DNA of 64,000 nt from Escherichia phage Ec_YwIITB1. Below, one piece after another: positions 4,794-49,324 of the stretch (the first letter of the stretch is position 1; each line of letters opens with the position of its first letter). Location of the stretch: the sequence record PQ356294.1; one strand, 5' to 3'. The notes under the pieces were generated by a model, which saw only the letters and a list, made by a program, of their open reading frames with translations, made no database searches and was not told the DNA's origin. Position numbers and translations under genes: made by a program.

Positions 4794-5278
4794 TTTAATT
4801 TCCTGCATTCAGTGATAAAATTATTTAAATTTTGAGCATATTTCTTTTCATCAAAAATCTTTTGTTGCCTGCGCATCCGCCATGGCATTTCAATGAACAT
4901 GTACCATATTCCTGATAATATTGATGCTGTAAAAATATTAACAAGTATGATTAAAAGAATCCAATCTTCCGTTCTGCCTACTGGACTTTCTATAAAAAAG
5001 CAAAATACAAATGATGACACAGGAAAACTAATGATATACCACAGAATCATAATCTTATCTGTGAACCATTCAGCATTCGTTAACTTAGCACGGCCATTAT
5101 GAATACACACGAATTTATCATCTGTTACAGTAGATGGCTTAACTGCTTGATATCCCATTCTAAACTCCCTAATTAATCGTTTCTTTGTATCTTCAGAACA
5201 GCCGCTCCAGTCAACTCTATCAACTGAAATGCCATCGTCCCCATCATCTAAATCATACCAGTGAGTTTTTAAAATCAT
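4790..5278 (-). CDS. small membrane protein (e.2-region)
   Basis: 162 aa with hydrophobic helices; ATGA overlap with upstream stop. Confidence 0.55.
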   Translation of the reverse strand: MILKTHWYDLDDGDDGISVDRVDWSGCSEDTKKRLIREFRMGYQAVKPSTVTDDKFVCIHNGRAKLTNAEWFTDKIMILWYIISFPVSSFVFCFFIESPVGRTEDWILLIILVNIFTASILSGIWYMFIEMPWRMRRQQKIFDEKKYAQNLNNFITECRKLK

Positions 5279-5650
5279 TTAATTTTCCTACAATCACTCA
5301 CAAACTCTTCCATTGATTCTTTTTCAATATAAGACATATAGCTATTATATTCCTTTAATTGTATTTTGTAATCCTTTTTTCTTTGCCAATTTATTTTAAA
5401 ATTATCATAATGAAAATATAACATGGTACCAAAGAATGAAAATAATGAAATCGCTATAGTATAATGAAGTTCACTCCAAACTTCTATTATATCTACTATA
5501 CCGCTGACGTTACTGCGGATGTTTAAAATAAAACAGTCAATTAACAATCCAATAAAAACTACCCGCAAGAGCTGCAGCCAATGCCACAGCAAAAATTGAA
5601 AATGACTCAGAAAAAGAATATTTGACTTTATTTAGTTTTGGCTTTTGCAT
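5275..5650 (-). CDS. small membrane protein, apparently frameshifted
   Basis: ATG at 5650 with AGGAA RBS opens a 37-codon frame (MQKPKLNKVKYSFSESFSIFAVALAAALAG...) that overlaps the 105-aa ORF 5275..5592, which itself only has a TTG start; the two join if a T5 run near 5554..5558 is really T4. Confidence 0.4.
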
Positions 5651-6642: not shown

Positions 6643-7236
6643 TTATTTCAGAGAATTAATGTATTCCTGAACATCGGCAGAGGTAGTTTCAACCCCGGAA
6701 ATATTACCATTAAAGGTTTCAACTCGAGCAAGAGTATCTTCAATATCAACCTTAGTCAGCGCTGCAATTTCAACTACATCATCGGCAGTACTAATTCCAA
6801 GGGCATTTGCCGCACGAGTTTCACGGATATATTCCAATTTAACTGCAAGCTCTTGACGAGCATCATCTAACTCAACTACTTTCTTGGCGATTTCAATTCG
6901 CATTTCAGCATAACCGTCAGCTTTAGTAGTCAACTGCTCAGCTGTTCGACGATATAGCAAGCCGAGTTTAGCGTGCATTGTTACATCTTGACCTTCGGAA
7001 AGAAGTTTACGAATTTCACGCTCTTTTGATTCAGCCTGTCGATTCTTTTCGACAATAAGTTCACGAATACGTTTTTCTTCATTAATAGATTTAACAGAAG
7101 CAGTTTTTAGATCTTTAATTTTATCAAGCAGTTTTGCCGCCGCAGCAGTATACTGTTCTTCAACAGATAGATTTTTAGCCATAGCAGAACCAAGTTTAGT
7201 GCGAATAAACTCAACAATTTTCTTTAGTGTGTTCAT
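6643..7236 (-). CDS. coiled-coil hypothetical protein
   Basis: 197 aa, heptad-rich K/E/R/A/L sequence; weak architectural resemblance to PspA/IM30 family, unverified. Confidence 0.5.
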
Positions 7237-7278: not shown

Positions 7279-7809
7279 TTATATCATACTATTTAAGAGA
7301 TGTAAACTATTTTTAATTTTACAAATTCGTTCAGCTTCTTCAACGGCGGCGGCGATAATGCTTTTAGCTATAGGAGTACTAATACTAGTAGCTTTTACAC
7401 TTAACACGATTTCTTTATCTTTACTAGGCCAACCCCATGATTTTTCACCATGAGTGCCTTTAATTACAGCAGACACCTCAAGTGAGCATCCACTGTCACA
7501 TGTTTTTACATTAACAACCCAAGGGTCACTTTTCTCAACCGATTTCTCAGCCGGTTTATCCCAGTAAATATTAAGAATACGTGGGACATCAAATTTAGCA
7601 GGGCAAATCTTAACTGTAAGACCTTCGCTTTCTAGCCAATTAATAAGAGGGCGTTCATACATGCGGCGATGTGGGCTTTGGACTCGACAAGCCTTGTGCC
7701 CATTGCTTGCGGCTTCACTAAGCTGTTCTAATACCTGTTTTTGCATTATTGATAAGATATCATCAAAAGATTTTTCGGAAGTTTCATTCAGTTCGGTATA
7801 AAGAGACAT
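7279..7809 (-). CDS. hypothetical protein
   Basis: ORF track begins at TTG (7824); ATG (MSLYTELNE...) at 7809 with GAGGAAA RBS. Confidence 0.5.
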   Translation of the reverse strand: MSLYTELNETSEKSFDDILSIMQKQVLEQLSEAASNGHKACRVQSPHRRMYERPLINWLESEGLTVKICPAKFDVPRILNIYWDKPAEKSVEKSDPWVVNVKTCDSGCSLEVSAVIKGTHGEKSWGWPSKDKEIVLSVKATSISTPIAKSIIAAAVEEAERICKIKNSLHLLNSMI

Positions 7810-7830
7810 AGCGGTTTTCCTCAAATTGTA

Positions 7831-9600: not shown

Positions 9601-9916
9601 AAGCCTTGCGGCAACCTTGTCGGGGTTCCACCTGCTAAGGCAAGTGTTTGTACGAAACGCCGGGATTTGAACCCGGTTATTAAGCAGTTGACGCTACTCA
9701 ATATTTTTAAAAGGCCATATCTCAACCATATCCGAACGTTCCGTCAAAAACGCTACTCGGCTTACAGCAAAAATATTTCCTCGAATCGATAATTCTGTGC
9801 GCCGTTTCAGCTGTGATGTAAGGGGACATTAACAGATCGTAAAGATTTGTTAATGCCAGTCCTTACCCAGGGAACATCAGTCCGACGACTTACCGGTAGC
9901 GACCCGGTTTCTTGTT

Positions 9917-9992
9917 TGGTCGAGGCAGTAGGGATCGAACCTACGACCTAGGACTTAGAAGGTCCTTGCTCTTCCTTCTGAGCTATGCCTCG
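9917..9992 (-). tRNA. tRNA-Arg (anticodon UCU)
   Basis: Manual cloverleaf: acceptor CGAGGCA/TGCCTCG, D stem GCTC/GAGC, anticodon loop CTTCTAA, T arm GTAGG-TTCGATC-CCTAC, encoded CCA. Confidence 0.85.
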
Positions 9993-10161
9993 AACCCATG
10001 ACTACGAGAATCACAATCTCGAGTTCTACCAACTGAACTACGGCCACATTAATACCTACTCCAACAATCAAGATGTCTTCACACGAAATTAAGAGAAGAG
10101 TGATCAGTTCAACCCCTATAATCGCGTCAAGTAGATATTAATGTGACAGTTGTCACAAATT
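9993..10161 (-). ncRNA. tRNA-like structured RNA (candidate counterpart of T4 stable RNA species 1/2)
   Basis: The 53 nt next to tRNA-Arg fold as acceptor strand GTGGCCG, D arm GTTC/GAAC, perfect anticodon arm CGAGA-TTGTGAT-TCTCG (GUG) and T-stem 5' strand, then run directly into tRNA-Arg with no T-stem 3' strand or acceptor 3' strand; hairpin tgtgaca/tgtcaca at 10141..10160. Confidence 0.4.
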
Positions 10162-10236
10162 TGGCGGACGTGATAGGATTCGAACCTATAACCAATCGCT
10201 TAACAGGCGATCGCTCTGCCATTGAGCTACACATCC
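10162..10236 (-). tRNA. tRNA-Asn (anticodon GUU)
   Basis: Manual cloverleaf: acceptor GGATGTG/CACGTCC, D arm GCTC-AATGGCA-GAGC, anticodon loop CTGTTAA, T arm ATAGG-TTCGAAT-CCTAT, encoded CCA. Confidence 0.8.
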
Positions 10237-10240
10237 AAAT

Positions 10241-10327
10241 TGGTGGGGAGTGGTGGAGTCGAACCACCCGAGTCGCAATGACAATGGATTTACAGTCCAC
10301 ACCGCTACCTCTACGGGATAACTCCCC
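10241..10327 (-). tRNA. tRNA-Tyr (anticodon GUA), class II with long variable arm
   Basis: Acceptor GGGGAGT/ACTCCCC, anticodon arm GTGGA-CTGTAAA-TCCAT, 15-nt variable arm, T arm GGTGG-TTCGACT-CCACC, encoded CCA. Confidence 0.75.
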
Positions 10328-10340
10328 TTAATTCTTAATT

Positions 10341-10415
10341 TGGTGGCCCTGGGTGGAATTGAACCACCATCTGGCGATTATGAGTCGCTTGCTTGAACCT
10401 TCCAGCTACAGGGCC
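10341..10415 (-). tRNA. tRNA with anticodon CAU (Ile by analogy to T4 tRNA-Ile; Met not excluded)
   Basis: Acceptor GGCCCTG/CAGGGCC, anticodon loop CTCATAA, T arm GGTGG-TTCAATT-CCACC, encoded CCA. Confidence 0.8.
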
Positions 10416-10416
10416 T

Positions 10417-10492
10417 TGGTGCTGATTGACGGAATTGAACCGCCGACCTTCCCATTACAAGTGAGTTGCTCTACCTACTGAGCTAAATCAGC
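10417..10492 (-). tRNA. tRNA-Thr (anticodon UGU)
   Basis: Acceptor GCTGATT/AATCAGC, D arm GCTC-AGTAGGTA-GAGC, anticodon loop CTTGTAA (stem has one mismatch), encoded CCA. Confidence 0.8.
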
Positions 10493-10497
10493 AAAAC

Positions 10498-10587
10498 TGG
10501 CGGAGGCGATAGGATTTGAACCTATGAGTCGCCGGAGCGACTGCCGGTTTTCAAGACCGGTGCATTAAACCACTCTGCCACGCCTCC
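10498..10587 (-). tRNA. tRNA-Ser (anticodon UGA), class II
   Basis: Acceptor GGAGGCG/CGCCTCC, anticodon arm ACCGG-CTTGAAA-CCGGT, long variable arm, T arm ATAGG-TTCAAAT-CCTAT, encoded CCA. Confidence 0.85.
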
Positions 10588-10589
10588 AG

Positions 10590-10663
10590 TCTCCATACAA
10601 GGATTTGAACCTTGGACCTCCTGATCCCAAATCAGGCGCTCTACCAAACTGAGCTACACGGAG
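10590..10663 (-). tRNA. tRNA-Pro (anticodon UGG)
   Basis: Acceptor CTCCGTG/TATGGAG (two G-U pairs), anticodon arm CCTGA-TTTGGGA-TCAGG, T arm CAAGG-TTCAAAT-CCTTG; CCA not encoded. Confidence 0.8.
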
Positions 10664-10673
10664 TAAATTAAAT

Positions 10674-10747
<74 letters not shown>

Positions 10748-10752
10748 AAATT

Positions 10753-10839
10753 TGGTGCGAGAAGTGGGACTCGAACCCACAAGGAAATCATTCCGCAGCA
10801 TTTTAAGTGCTGTGCCTTTACCAATTTGACCATTCTCGC
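10753..10839 (-). tRNA. tRNA-Leu (anticodon UAA), class II
   Basis: Acceptor GCGAGAA/TTCTCGC, anticodon arm CAGCA-CTTAAAA-TGCTG, long variable arm, T arm GTGGG-TTCGAGT-CCCAC, encoded CCA. Confidence 0.85.
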
Positions 10840-10840
10840 G

Positions 10841-10913
10841 CTGGGAATAAAGGACTCGAACCTTTGCATCCTGGAATCAAAATCCAGTGCCTTACCAACT
10901 TGGCTAATTCCCA
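10841..10913 (-). tRNA. tRNA-Gln (anticodon UUG)
   Basis: Acceptor TGGGAAT/ATTCCCA, anticodon arm CTGGA-TTTTGAT-TCCAG, T arm AAAGG-TTCGAGT-CCTTT; abuts tRNA-Leu, CCA not encoded. Confidence 0.8.
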
Positions 10914-29879: not shown

Positions 29880-31349
29880 ATGATTGAATTAAAAGAGTTA
29901 CCTTTTGTTGATAGCGCTCCTGACGAAGGTCAAGAGCGTATTTCATGGATTAAAAATGGTGAAGAAATATTAGGAGCTAGTACTAAGTATGGAAATGATG
30001 GATCAATGAATAGACCTATTGTTTCCGTGTTTAAAAATGTCGAAGTTCTTGATGAAAATGTGGGAATTCTTAAAACTGCCATTGAAACATCACAGAAAGA
30101 TATTAAAACAATTCAAGGAGTTTTAGATGTATCAGGAGATATAGAAGCGCTATCACAGATCAGCGTTAATAAAAATGATATATCAAGTTTAAAGACGCTC
30201 ACAAGTGAACATACTGATATATTAAATGGTACAAATACTACGGTTGATAATATTCTTTCTGATATTGGTCCATTTAATTCGCAAGCAAATTCAGTTTATA
30301 GAACGATTAGAAATGATTTGCTGTGGATTAAAAGGGAACTAGGACAATATGCTGGACAAGATATTAATGGTCTTCCTGTTGTAGGAAATCCTAGCACAGG
30401 AATGAAGCATCGCATTATTAATAATACTGATGTCATCACTTCACAAGGAATACGTTTAAGCGAATTAGAAACAAAATTTATTGAATCTGATGTAGGTTCG
30501 CTTACAATCGAAGTAGGAAATCTTAGACAGGAATTAGGACAAAGACCGCCTTCATTTAGTGAAAGTATATATTCGCGTGTGCATAATTTAGATCAATCAC
30601 AAATTAATCTTAATTCCGAAATTAAATCTATCAAAACTTCTATTGGATATCCAGGAAATACTTCAATAATCACAGATGTTAACACTAATACACGAGAAAT
30701 TTCAGCTTTAACTGATGAGCTAAATAAAAGCGGAGGTGTTAAACAGCGATTAACTGTCATTGAAACATCAATTGGCTCAGATGATATTCCTTCTAGTATT
30801 AAAGGACAAATCAAAAATCACACAACTTCAATCGAAGCTCTAAATGGAATCGTCGGTGAAAACACTTCGTCTGGTTTAAGAGCGAATGTTTCATGGTTAA
30901 ATCAAATTGTTGGAACTGACTCCAGCGGAGGACAACCGTCTCCTTCTGGATCTCTATTAAACCGAGTTTCAGTTGAAGGAGAAGTTTCTGTTTTTAGGCT
31001 GAATAATGTTCAAAATCTACAAGTAGAGATAGGAAATAATAGAACAATTCAGGAATTAAAGGGCAAGTTATTGAGCTTACTTCCTTTATAAATGGAAATA
31101 ATCCTGACGGATCAACTGTTGAAGAACGCGGATTAACCAATTCTGTAAAAACGAACGAAACCAACATTGCAGCACACACACAGGAAGTAAGTAGTAATAC
31201 AGCCAAGAAGTAGTATATCTTCATTACAGGCGGATGTTCAGACTTTACAGGAAGCAGGTTATATTCCTGAAGCTCCAAAAGATGGCCAAGCTTACGTTCG
31301 TAAAGACGGCGAATGGGTATTACTTTCTACCTTTTTATCACCAGCATAA
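29880..31349 (+). CDS. wac: fibritin (neck whiskers), frame-disrupted in this sequence
   Basis: 403-codon ORF ends at TAA 31089; the continuation [17 protein letters not shown]... is in another frame to TAG 31211, and the C-terminal foldon [30 protein letters not shown] is back in the original frame. Confidence 0.8.
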
Positions 31350-42518: not shown

Positions 42519-43328
42519 ATGCTTAAAGAACAACTGATTGCTGAAGCGCAAAAAATTGATGCTTCCGTTGCTCTTGATAGTATTTTCGAATCAGTTAATA
42601 TTTCTCCGGAAGCAAAAGAAACTTTCGGCACTGTATTCGAAGCTACCGTCAAGCAGCACGCCGTTAAATTAGCTGAATCTCATATCGCTAAAATTGCTGA
42701 AAAAGCAGAAGAAGAAGTAGAAAAAAATAAAGAAGAAGCCGAAGAAAAAGCTGAGAAGAAAATCGCTGAGCAAGCTTCTAAATTCATCGACCATCTTGCA
42801 AAAGAATGGCTCGCTGAAAATAAATTAGCAGTTGATAAAGGCATCAAAGCCGAACTATTTGAATCCATGCTTGGTGGATTAAAAGAGCTCTTTGTTGAAC
42901 ACAACGTTGTTGTTCCAGAAGAATCAGTTGATGTTGTAGCTGAAATGGAAGAAGAGCTGCAAGAACATAAAGAAGAATCAGCTCGTCTGTTCGAAGAACT
43001 CAATAAGCGTGACGCATATATCAATTATGTGCAGCGTGAAGTGGCATTGAGCGAAAGTACTAAAGATCTGACTGAGTCTCAAAAAGAAAAAGTCTCTGCT
43101 CTGGTCGAAGGTATGGATTATTCAGATGCATTCTCAAGTAAATTGAGTGCCATCGTAGAAATGGTGAAGAAGTCTAATAAAGATGAAAGCACTATTACTG
43201 AGGGTATAAATACTCCTGATACTGAAGCAGCCGGACTGAATTTCGTCACTGAAGCTGTAGAAGATAAAACTGCACCTGGTGCAGAAGATATTGTAAGTGT
43301 ATATGCGAAAGTCGCATCTCGTTTCTAA
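42519..43328 (+). CDS. 22: gp22 prohead core scaffold protein
   Basis: 269 aa, acidic coiled-coil, T4 gp22 length and position. Confidence 0.9.
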   Translation: MLKEQLIAEAQKIDASVALDSIFESVNISPEAKETFGTVFEATVKQHAVKLAESHIAKIAEKAEEEVEKNKEEAEEKAEKKIAEQASKFIDHLAKEWLAENKLAVDKGIKAELFESMLGGLKELFVEHNVVVPEESVDVVAEMEEELQEHKEESARLFEELNKRDAYINYVQREVALSESTKDLTESQKEKVSALVEGMDYSDAFSSKLSAIVEMVKKSNKDESTITEGINTPDTEAAGLNFVTEAVEDKTAPGAEDIVSVYAKVASRF

Positions 43329-43346: not shown

Positions 43347-44908
43347 ATGACTATCAAAACTAAAGCTGAACTTTTGAACAAATGGAAGCCATTACTGGAA
43401 GGTGAAGGTTTACCGGAAATTGCTAATAGCAAACAAGCGATTATCGCTAAAATCTTTGAAAACCAGGAAAAAGATTTCCAGACAGCTCCAGAGTACAAAG
43501 ACGAAAAAATCGCCCAGGCGTTCGGTTCTTTCTTAACAGAAGCTGAAATCGGTGGTGACCACGGTTACAACGCTACTAACATTGCTGCTGGTCAGACTTC
43601 TGGCGCAGTAACTCAGATTGGCCCAGCTGTTATGGGTATGGTACGTCGTGCTATTCCTAACCTGATTGCTTTCGATATTTGCGGTGTTCAGCCGATGAAT
43701 AGCCCGACTGGCCAGGTATTTGCACTGCGTGCAGTATATGGTAAAGACCCAATCGCTGCTGATGCTAAAGAAGCATTCCACCCAATGTATGGTCCAGATG
43801 CAATGTTCTCTGGTCAGGGTGCTGCTAAGAAATTCGCGCTAGCACACAAACTACTGTAAGTTGGAACCATTTACACCTATTTCTTCCAGGAAACTGGTAC
43901 TGTATATCTGCAAGCTACCTCTAGTTAAAGCAAATTGATACAAGTGCTTCTGACGCAGCTAAATTAGATGCTGAAATTAAGAAACAAATGGAAGCTGGCG
44001 TATTGGTAGAAATCGCTGAAGGTATGGCTACTTCTATCGCTGAACTTCAGGAAGGTTTCAACGGTTCTACCGATAACCCATGGAATGAAATGGGATTCCG
44101 TATCGATAAACAAGTTATCGAAGCTAAATCTCGTCAGCTGAAAGCTGCTTACTCTATCGAATTAGCACAAGACCTCCGCGCTGTTCACGGTATGGATGCT
44201 GATGCTGAACTGTCTGGTATTCTGGCTACCGAAATCATGCTGGAAATCAACCGTGAAGTTGTTGATTGGATTAACTACTCAGCTCAGGTTGGTAAATCTG
44301 GTATGACCCTGACTCCGGGTTCTAAAGCTGGTGTATTTGACTTCCAGGATCCGATTGATATTCGCGGTGCTCGCTGGGCAGGTGAATCCTTTAAAGCTCT
44401 GTTGTTCCAGATTGACAAAGAAGCAGTTGAAATTGCTCGTCAGACCGGTCGTGGTGAAGGTAACTTCATTATCGCTTCCCGTAACGTAGTTAACGTTCTG
44501 GCTTCAGTTGATACTGGCATTTCTTATGCTGCACAGGGTCTGGCTACCGGCTTTAACACTGATACTACCAAGTCAGTATTTGCTGGTGTTCTGGGTGGTA
44601 AATACCGTGTATACATCGACCAGTATGCTAAACAGGATTATTTCACTGTAGGTTATAAAGGTCCGAACGAAATGGATGCTGGTATTTACTACGCTCCATA
44701 TGTAGCTCTGACTCCGCTGCGTGGTTCCGATCCGAAGAACTTCCAACCGGTAATGGGATTCAAAACTCGTTACGGTATCGGTATCAACCCATTTGCAGAA
44801 TCCGCTGCTCAGGCTCCGGCTTCTCGCATCCAAAGCGGTATGCCTTCTATTCTTAATAGCCTTGGTAAAAACGCTTACTTCCGCCGTGTATATGTTAAAG
44901 GTATCTAA
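43347..44908 (+). CDS. 23: gp23 major capsid protein, frame-disrupted in this sequence
   Basis: ORFs 43347..43859 (170 aa, MTIKTKAELLNKWKPLLEGEG...) and 43988..44908 (306 aa, ...MEAGVLVEIAEGMATSIAELQEGFNG... to YFRRVYVKGI) match the N- and C-terminal parts of T4 gp23; the 130 nt between them encodes the conserved middle in alternating frames with two in-frame TAA stops. Confidence 0.9.
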
Positions 44909-44991: not shown

Positions 44992-46275
44992 ATGGCTAAA
45001 ATCAACGAACTTCTGCGCGAATCAACCACAACGAATAGCAACTCAATCGGTCGCCCAAATCTCGTTGCTTTGACTCGCGCTACCACTAAATTAATATATT
45101 CTGACATTGTAGCAACGCAAAGAACTAATCAACCTGTTGCTGCTTTTTATGGTATCAAATACCTTAACCCGGATAACGAATTTACATTTAAAACTGGTGC
45201 TACTTACGCCGGCGAAGCTGGGTATGTAGACCGAGAACAAATCACAGAATTAACAGAAGAGTCTAAATTAACTCTCAATAAAGGCGATTTATTCAAATAT
45301 AATAATATCGTTTATAAAGTATTAGAAAATACACCATTTGCTGATATTGAAGAAAGTGATTTAGAATTAGCTCTTCAGATTGCAATTGTTCTTTTAAAGG
45401 TTCGTCTATTTTCTGATGCTGCAGTAACAAGCAAATTTGAAAGCTCTGATAGTGAAATTGCGGATGCTAGATTCCAGATTAATAAATGGCAAACCGCAGT
45501 TAAATCTCGTAAACTTAAAACTGGCATCACAGTCGAATTAGCACAAGATTTAGAAGCAAACGGATTCGATGCTCCTAATTTCTTGGAAGATTTGCTTGCA
45601 ACTGAAATGGCGGATGAAATCAATAAAGATATTTTACAGTCTTTGATTACAGTGTCAAAACGCTATAAAGTTACAGGAATTACTGATACTGGATTCATTG
45701 ATTTGAGTTATGCATCTGCACCTGAAGCTGGTCGTTCATTATACCGAATGGTATGTGAAATGGTTTCGCATATCCAAAAAGAATCAACTTATACTGCAAC
45801 GTTCTGTGTTGCTTCAGCTCGTGCCGCTGCGATTCTTGCTGCATCAGGTTGGTTAAAACATAAACCGGAAGATGATAAATATCTTTCACAAAATGCCTAC
45901 GGGTTCTTAGCTAATGGTTTACCGCTTTATTGCGATACCAACAGTCCATTAGATTATGTAATCGTTGGCGTAGTAGAAAATATCGGTGAAAAAGAAATTG
46001 TTGGATCAATTTTCTATGCTCCGTATACAGAAGGTCTTGACTTAGATGACCCTGAACATGTAGGTGCATTTAAAGTTGTAGTTGATCCAGAAAGTTTGCA
46101 GCCATCTATCGGTTTATTAGTTAGATATGCTTTATCTGCAAATCCTTACACTGTAGCAAAAGATGAAAAAGAAGCAAGAGTAATTGATGGTGGAGATATG
46201 GATAAAATGGCGGGTCGTTCAGATTTGTCTGTTTTATTAGGTGTTAAGCTACCAAAAATTATCATTGATGAATAA
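44992..46275 (+). CDS. 24: gp24 capsid vertex protein
   Basis: 427 aa, gp23 paralogue at the T4 gp24 position. Confidence 0.9.
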   Translation: MAKINELLRESTTTNSNSIGRPNLVALTRATTKLIYSDIVATQRTNQPVAAFYGIKYLNPDNEFTFKTGATYAGEAGYVDREQITELTEESKLTLNKGDLFKYNNIVYKVLENTPFADIEESDLELALQIAIVLLKVRLFSDAAVTSKFESSDSEIADARFQINKWQTAVKSRKLKTGITVELAQDLEANGFDAPNFLEDLLATEMADEINKDILQSLITVSKRYKVTGITDTGFIDLSYASAPEAGRSLYRMVCEMVSHIQKESTYTATFCVASARAAAILAASGWLKHKPEDDKYLSQNAYGFLANGLPLYCDTNSPLDYVIVGVVENIGEKEIVGSIFYAPYTEGLDLDDPEHVGAFKVVVDPESLQPSIGLLVRYALSANPYTVAKDEKEARVIDGGDMDKMAGRSDLSVLLGVKLPKIIIDE

Positions 46276-47894: not shown

Positions 47895-49324
47895 TTATGG
47901 ATAGGTATAGATGATACCAGTTTCTAAAGCAGTTTTATGAATGATGTATCCATTGCGTGATTCTTGAACATCAACTTCTGGATAGTCTTTCATCATCTTC
48001 TGAAGAGTGTAACGATGCAGGTAGTATTTACTGTCTGGATCTTCAGTTTTCCAATCTTTACCTTCTTCGGTCATTTTTTGGATTTCATCCATAACCCACC
48101 AGCCGCACCAGATATAAGCCGAAGTACGATGTGGAAGAGGATGAACATAAGGCAATTCACCTTCTGGTTCCGGAGCAACTTTATCAGTTACCTGAACTTG
48201 GCCTGTTGCTTTAACTGTTTTACTATCATAGTCGGTTGCTGTAACGACAGCAGTAACTTCAATAGTTTGACTTCCAATAGATGAGGTGTCAACGGTGTAT
48301 ACATTAGTTGACCCTTCTACAGGAGAAGAATCTTTCTTCCATGAATAAGTAATTTGAGCTGCTTCAGGTGCTCCGTGACATTAGCCGTAAATGTAGCCGA
48401 AGCATCTTGCTGAACGTTAATAGAAGGAGGAGTCAATGTAACCTGTGGATTCATTGTCTTCTTATTAACTGTCAATGATACTTCATTAGAAGTAACTTCC
48501 TTTGCATCATAATTTTCAGCCGTTACTTGGGCTACACACTTAACTGTTTTAGCTCCAACTGTGGTAGGAGTATAGTTAAATGTAGTAGTAGTTTCTCCAT
48601 CGACCAGAGAACCGTCAACATACCACTGATACGTAGCAGACGCTCCTGGTGGCTGTGAAGCCAAGGTAGCAGTAAATTGAACTGGGGTTCCAATAACTCC
48701 TGCTGGAGGATTAGCAGGAGTTACGGCTAACGTAGTTGTCTGTGTTTTCTTATTAACAGTCAGTGACACTTCATTAGAAGTAACTTCCTTTGCATCATAA
48801 TCTGTCGCGGTTACTTGAGCTACACACTTAATTGTTTTAACTCCGCTTGCGTCAGGAGTGTAATTGAATGTAGTGCCAGTTGCTTCGCCCACAGGAGAAC
48901 CGTCAACGTGCCATTGATACGTAGCGTTTGCACTTGGTGGCTGTGAAGCTAAGGCAGCGGTAAATTCAATTGGAGTTCCAATCACTCCAGCATCAGGGCT
49001 ACCAGGAGTTACAGCTAAAATAGTTGTTTGTGTCTTATTTTGAACCGTGATAGTTGTCGTAGTTTCTGCTGTTTCAGGTTCAGGTTCAGATTCAGATTCT
49101 GGAACTGTATTTGTTGCAACGACTTTAATAGTCTTTTGACCTGCAGGTCCTTTTAATACATAGCCAAAAGTTGCCGCTTCTCCATCTTGCGGAACATTAT
49201 CTACACTCCAAGCATAGGTAATAGTTCCATCTCCAGTTTCACCACTGGGTGTAGCAGTAAACTGCTTGGTTTCATCAATAACTCCTGTTGGGGTTTTAGG
49301 AGTTATATCAACTGTAAAAGTCAT
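47895..49324 (-). CDS. hoc: Hoc outer capsid protein (Ig-like domains), frame-disrupted in this sequence
   Basis: N-terminal ORF 48317..49324 (MTFTVDITPKTPTGVIDETKQFTATPSG...) with repeated Ig-like domains ends after ...ANVT; the fourth domain and the capsid-binding C-terminus (...APEPEGELPYVHPLPHR... to IIYTYP) are intact in the +2 frame down to 47895; the junction is at a GG run near 48373. Confidence 0.85.

Follow-up and report, generated by a model that had tools for sequence, protein, structure and literature searches.

The interrupted major capsid gene 23 of Escherichia phage Ec_YwIITB1 is best explained as an artefact of genome-sequence reconstruction

The major capsid protein of phage T4, gp23, is described by the family PF07068 and encoded in the gene order 22-23-24, and it is essential in T4-like phages. 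Recoding is known from phages, as in the translational bypassing of T4 gene 60 and the -1 frameshift of T7 gene 10A/10B, and, to our knowledge, programmed frameshifting and bypassing are the only legitimate routes by which a structural or essential phage gene can run through several frames or across a stop codon. Both examples depend on defined slippery or take-off and landing sites and on stimulatory elements, operate once per gene and are conserved; the gene 23 described here is without all of these features. Known errors of assembly and consensus building, by comparison, place their breaks in the most polymorphic segments and leave conserved genes clean, a pattern that recurs here and on which we base the assignment of this locus to that class. 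In both gene 23 and wac, segments of two allele types meet out of register, as they do in consensus errors of hypervariable regions (haplotype collapse, reference-guided or reference-polished consensus). A further source of error is base modification, T-even genomes, with their hypermodified cytosines, being known as difficult material for nanopore basecalling (PMC12838424).

The stretch of DNA analysed here, referred to as the window, comprises 64,000 nt of the Ec_YwIITB1 record PQ356294.1. It is the late-gene region of a Tequatrovirus, that is, of a T4-like phage: the best public phage genomes are 95-97% identical to it over 24 kb, and its gene order is that of T4 and of phage ZCEC15. A 32-kb GenBank record named 'Staphylococcus phage SAJK-IND' (MG010123.1) is likewise 96% identical to the window over 24 kb; its host assignment is almost certainly wrong, or else the record is a contaminant. 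Gene 23, which encodes the major capsid protein, spans 43347..44908 and is flanked in T4 order by g22 (42519-43328) and g24 (44992-46275). In contrast to its T4 counterpart, it is 4 nt short and distributed over three frames, measuring 1562 nt compared to 1566 nt in 40 of the 40 best phage records. Two TAA stops (43857 and 43926) lie in frame, and the conserved protein goes on piecewise in alternating frames. An earlier, sequence-only reading of the window had already described the gene as split over alternating frames with two in-frame stops, and our analysis reproduced its coordinates (43857, 43838-43858, 43863-43925 and 43926). In order along the plus strand, the parts of the gene and the junctions between them are as follows.

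43347..43859, plus strand: 5' part of gene 23, a 170-aa ORF from ATG 43347 to TAA 43857-43859
43836..43837, plus strand: junction 1, 'GC' left from 12 nt (4 codons); register offset 0 to +10
43838..43858, plus strand: T4-type patch GCTAGCACACAAACTACTGTA, 21 nt, GCT AGC ACA CAA ACT ACT GTA = ASTQTTV; +2 frame, out of frame with the upstream gene
43859..43862, plus strand: junction 2, four extra bases AGTT; register offset +10 to +6
43863..43928, plus strand: conserved core GTIYTYFFQETGTVYLQATSS (GGA ACC ATT ... AGT, 43863-43925), then TAA 43926-43928; original frame
43919..43927, plus strand: junction 3, CTCTAGTTA (9 nt versus 7 nt in PYps32T-type alleles), net +2; register offset +6 to +4
43925..44908, plus strand: 3' part of gene 23, LKQIDTSASDAAKLDAEIKKQMEAG, TTA AAG CAA ... 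(LKQIDTSASD...) to the natural stop; +2 frame

As written, gene 23 does not form an uninterrupted ORF of about 521 codons, its 3' part lying in another frame, and we judge this fault in continuity to belong to the record and not to the phage. Both parts are recognized by the Gp23 profile (PF07068, cut-off 24.4), the 5' ORF with 68.7 bits over profile positions 1-62 and the 3' ORF with 327.3 bits over positions 109-375. Within the 170-aa ORF, authentic gp23 extends over residues 1-163 only (to ...AAKKF at 43835), and ORF finders give the 3' part as 306 aa, starting from ATG 43988 (43988..44908).

All natural gp23 alleles in our comparison are single ORFs with 521 or 522 codons. At least 24 contigs have a gp24 identical to that of the window, and gp23 is intact (521 or 522 aa) in all 10 of those listed. 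The 161-nt segment 43810-43970 aligns to 165 nt in 40 of the 40 best records, with an identity of at most 86%. Between the anchors CAGGGTGCTGCTAAGAAATTC and GAAATTAAGAAA we collected 15 distinct natural alleles, and then three more, whose variable stretches fall into a T4 type, a PYps32T type, a ZCEC15 type and others. The anchor-to-anchor length is 174 nt in all 15 + 3 of these alleles, compared to 170 nt in the window, and the alignment to gp23 orthologues that had been proposed as a check showed all relatives to be uninterrupted, with variable stretches of equal length. The window's shifts are common to no relative among more than 600, 653-1068 INPHARED records forming the meaningful comparison. 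Searches with exact and gapped junction patterns returned 0 matches in IMG/VR, JGI metagenomes and GTDB genomes; here, the IMG/VR negatives carry little weight because a control 36-mer from the conserved core matched only 2 contigs, the collection holding too few Tequatroviruses. By exact protein look-up, no identical proteins are on record for the 170-aa ORF, gp18 and RnlB, and the 306-aa ORF has entries from two unrelated contigs, where it arises for other reasons.

A nonsense codon is present in a T4/ECML-134-type g23 from a metagenome (locus L013; ENA ERZ27280771, contig k141_321369), in which CAA is changed to TAA just before the Met-215 codon, at positions ~140-150. This stop leads gene callers to predict, here too, the 306-aa C-terminal 'protein' found in the window. 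The sample is unrelated, and the codon represents a nonsense variant or else an error of assembly.

The three frame changes within about 90 nt that the sequence-only reading had noticed correspond, at the nucleotide level, to shifts of -10 (after 43837), +4 (43859-43862) and +2 (43919-43927) relative to every natural allele compared (at least 18, all of equal length), with a net change of -4. We located them by register mapping, using maximal exact matches of the window against the natural alleles. The offset is 0 up to 43837, the last stretch being PYps32T-type TTCGC, and +10 over 43838-43854, within the T4-type patch, for which the longest exact match is a 17-mer in locus L016 and which differs from T4 itself at two positions only, both of them third-codon positions. 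It then becomes +6 over 43858-43918, where PYps32T-type AAGTTGGAAC is followed by ZCEC15-type TAT, and +4 from 43928 on, again in PYps32T-type sequence. The first two shifts therefore flank a patch of T4 type (ASTQTTV) within a background of PYps32T type.

At junction 1, AAATTC is separated from codon 5 of the variable block by 12 nt in every natural allele, while the window is without 10 of them, so that ten bases between the two types are missing. At junction 2, the same codon positions are represented twice in succession, once by each of two allele types (GTA + AGTT): the AGTT is the PYps32T-type version of codon positions already given by the GTA of the patch, and it both makes the TAA at 43857 and brings reading back to the original frame. 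Junction 3 looks like ZCEC15-type CCTCT fused to PYps32T-type AGTTAAG plus an extra A. No inverted or direct repeats able to template indels were found at the g23 break. The tandem join of GTA and AGTT is not made by homologous recombination, and the pattern of breaks as a whole is the signature of neither homologous recombination nor random +/-1 errors.

The individual fragments nevertheless bear the marks of a functional gene. The single-base differences of the three fragments from their nearest alleles are third-position synonymous changes in each local frame, indicating that each fragment evolved as coding sequence. In a 3.78-kb alignment of g22-g24, comprising the window and 12 relatives, the three g23 shifts are the only private coding indels, a strongly non-random clustering, and all 12 lineage-private substitutions are synonymous; nine of them are in g23, one on the 5' side of the break and eight on the 3' side. 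Compared to ZCEC15, g23 shows 14 synonymous and 0 nonsynonymous changes outside 43830-43960, and the relaxed constraint expected of a pseudogene is not seen. The restriction of private changes to synonymous positions on both sides of the break points to strong purifying selection on both halves of the gene, so that the breaks, if real at all, must have arisen extremely recently. As gp23 is essential, they cannot exist in a viable phage.

These findings weigh on the possibility that the sequence is accurate and the genome defective, having suffered a recent lethal rearrangement of g23 along with the breakage of wac and hoc, and being either complemented in a high-titre stock or of metagenomic origin. 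Since wac and hoc are dispensable in T4, real lesions would be possible there, and the nonsense codon in the g23 of L013 illustrates that defective or erroneous copies of this gene do occur in assemblies. For g23 itself, however, essentiality stands against such a lesion, and with private substitutions that are all synonymous its inactivation would have to be extremely recent. Moreover, three independent out-of-register events in 90 nt, with more in wac and none in about 75 genes, are unlike random mutation, and the tandem GTA+AGTT join is not what homologous recombination would leave behind. We consider a defective genome distinctly improbable.

If the record were correct and gp23 still produced at full length, the ribosome would have to shift frame three times or bypass the stops. 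The conserved peptide can be read piecewise over the three frames, and phages do use recoding, as T4 gene 60 and T7 gene 10A/10B attest. However, 43800-43990 contains neither a slippery heptamer of the form X XXY YYZ nor a homopolymer of 4 or more, and a search for stimulatory RNA structure in g23 gave a minimum free energy of -26.8 kcal/mol compared to a shuffled mean of -27.2 (z = 0.12), a fold no better than that of shuffled sequence. The points at which a change of frame would be permitted are only 1-4 nt wide and consist of non-slippery sequence (GTA A GTT; AGT TAA). For a bypass resembling that of gene 60, a CTG does precede the TAA at 43857, but the available landing CTGs (43894, 43900, 43908 ...) would skip the invariant GTIYTYFFQETGTVY. 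No suppressor tRNA for UAA is found among the 11 tRNAs (no anticodon UUA, CUA or UCA), and nonsense suppression could not mend the frame differences in g23 anyway. The shifted arrangement is not conserved in any of the more than 600 relatives, all of which have the gene in one frame, and its product would still be without 3-4 residues kept by every allele. Finally, three serial events of low efficiency cannot be reconciled with the status of gp23 as the most abundant protein of the virion. Recoding is thus already close to refuted, and among the readings weighed here we give it the lowest probability, a practically negligible one. A broader scenario of accurate DNA in a viable phage, involving three non-canonical recoding events or a capsid built from split gp23 fragments or, in a milder form, real heterogeneity of the stock in the gp23, Hoc and fibritin surface cassettes, likewise seems to us barely credible. 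With synonymous-only private changes, no recoding signal and breaks shared by no relative, the earlier preference for an artefact over recoding or a pseudogene is borne out.

The damage is not confined to g23. Four genes in the window are disrupted, namely g23, wac, hoc and the gene of a 124-aa e.3-like membrane protein, and about 75 genes are intact, with 95-100% amino acid identity (tblastn of 85 ZCEC15 proteins against the window). The sequence-only reading had likewise listed wac, hoc and a small membrane-protein gene as disrupted, and we recovered all three (at ~30970-31210, 48375 and 5554, respectively).

30970..31210, plus strand: damage in the C-terminal third of wac (fibritin, 29880..31349); register steps, frame, stops
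48374..48376, minus strand: private 1-nt deletion in hoc (47898..49324); private compared to 11 relatives, no homopolymer
5554..5558, minus strand: A5-run frameshift in the e.3-like membrane-protein gene, 124 aa (5278..5650); A4 in ZCEC15, no run in T4

In wac, register steps of -3, +3, +5, +6 and +1 follow one another between 30973 and 31207; the middle section (31050-31205, ~160 nt) is out of frame and contains 4 stops, and the foldon end is in frame again. Stretches of 10-40 nt of T4 type and of ECML-134/ZCEC15 type alternate here, in the same pattern as in g23. The hoc deletion at 48375 sits at a switch from a ZCEC15-type to an L020/L024-type allele (the latter named after two of the loci compared). 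Register jumps at switches of allele type, with homologous positions concatenated or dropped, as would be expected of blending, are therefore found in g23, wac and hoc. The e.3-like gene is non-essential, so that its A5 change could be real.

Several further observations were made in these comparisons. The length of Hoc differs greatly between close relatives (311, 376, 472, 568 and 664 aa in loci L016-L025), presumably owing to the number of Ig-like domains. An apparent split of an 84-aa gene at ~7105 was discarded, as it reflects a run difference of ZCEC15's own, phage T4 agreeing with the window; where the ZCEC15 record (positions 7562-7816 of locus L010, compared with window positions 6984-7236) annotates an 84-aa gene with a run of four T, the window and phage T4 have a run of five T and a longer e.6-type ORF, which places the frameshift in ZCEC15. 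ARAGORN predicts 11 tRNA genes at 9917-10913 on the minus strand, including those for His, Asn and Tyr; T4 has 8 tRNA genes. Oddly, two of the predictions, tRNA-Arg (9917-9992) and tRNA-His (9976-10048), share 17 nt, and single-base insertions relative to both ZCEC15 and T4 occur at 9835 and 9846, just downstream of the tRNAs in the small stable RNA region.

The location of the breaks bears on a purely technical rival, in which glucosyl-hmC T-even DNA and homopolymers would have generated platform indel noise (nanopore, 454 or Ion Torrent), with no second haplotype or reference involved. Hypermodified cytosines have been reported to wreck nanopore basecalling in phages Thanatos and RB69 (PMC12838424), and the window does hold one classic homopolymer error, the change from A4 to A5 at 5554. 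Polishing of such an assembly with the genomes of relatives would leave errors standing only where a close homologue is lacking, that is, in hypervariable segments. Reference-based correction tools of this kind exist, one reportedly being that of Chiou et al. 2023, which PMC11404850 cites. Against such noise, 5554 is the only site with a +/-1 change inside a run, and no homopolymer of 4 or more lies in the g23 region. Instead of +/-1, the shifts amount to -10, +4 and +2 in g23 and include +5 and +6 in wac, and the first two g23 shifts flank a patch of another allele type. The window contains 371 homopolymer runs with a length of at least 5, of which only one is the site of a private frameshift, although many more breaks would be expected from a homopolymer-driven process; with about 58 kb of other coding DNA free of breaks, unpolished noise would have had to spare all but the variable segments. 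Of the seven frame-breaking events, five fall into 100-nt bins whose identity to ZCEC15 or T4 is below 90%, such bins making up 11% of the total (binomial P ~3e-4, a rough value, since events within a locus depend on one another and the identity of a bin is itself reduced by the indels). Indel noise therefore appears unlikely to us as the explanation of the record, and the cause first suggested for g23, single-base indels driven by homopolymers or hmC, is not supported at this site in view of the absence of runs of 4 or more, the size of the shifts and the single broken run among 371. Such noise may nonetheless contribute indirectly, via a homologue-based correction that spares variable regions.

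Taken together, our results favour the reading that the broken gene 23 is an artefact of genome-sequence reconstruction, to which we assign a probability of roughly 0.87 on the strength of the sequence comparisons. In this reading, the artefact is limited to hypervariable, surface-exposed segments, and we favour the blending of alleles as its mechanism, a cause suggested by the pattern of the breaks. Divergent reads of the hypervariable stretch would have been misaligned or mismerged against another haplotype or a reference, and the resulting consensus would combine segments of different allele types that do not meet in register (-10, +4, +2 nt). The same process may have affected the hypervariable portions of wac and produced the one 1-nt jump in hoc, leaving about 75 conserved genes clean. 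The source of such a blend could be a mixed stock, or an assembly that was reference-guided or polished against a reference. Multi-base jumps at joins of allele types are a product of pile-up, long-read or reference-guided consensus; as De Bruijn-graph assemblers normally do not join haplotypes out of register, blending would need a step of one of these kinds, which we assume here.

One finding speaks against a simple form of blending: no known allele matches the T4-type patch or any of the other pieces at 100% identity, and no two concrete parents can be named. A plain two-parent mosaic was accordingly rejected, since no pair of known alleles rebuilds the stretch and private third-position changes occur in each of its sub-segments. 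As no two known alleles explain the whole stretch, the fine-scale mixture of alleles could in part be a genuine novel allele.

While we judge the split of gene 23 to be no real feature, the phage itself almost certainly carries an uninterrupted gene 23 of 521 codons whose hypervariable stretch (residues ~164-205) represents a new allele. In the structure of the T4 capsid, linker 1 of the I-domain comprises residues 132-160 (PMC9546572). The hypervariable stretch comes just after this linker, which places it probably in the surface-exposed insertion domain, the part of gp23 that forms the surface protrusions.

The main value of the finding lies in quality control of the record. Applied to the deposited sequence, an annotation pipeline would report two ORFs or a pseudogene in place of the major capsid gene, and truncated versions of fibritin and Hoc. 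As a diagnostic, frame breaks at joins of allele types in hypervariable segments, in combination with private substitutions that are exclusively synonymous, would point to consensus blending and not to biology. Should independent reads confirm the sequence, it would represent a remarkable case of recoding. For the T4-like phages, in which g23 is a standard phylogenetic and ecological marker, a garbled variable loop of this kind would distort comparisons between alleles.
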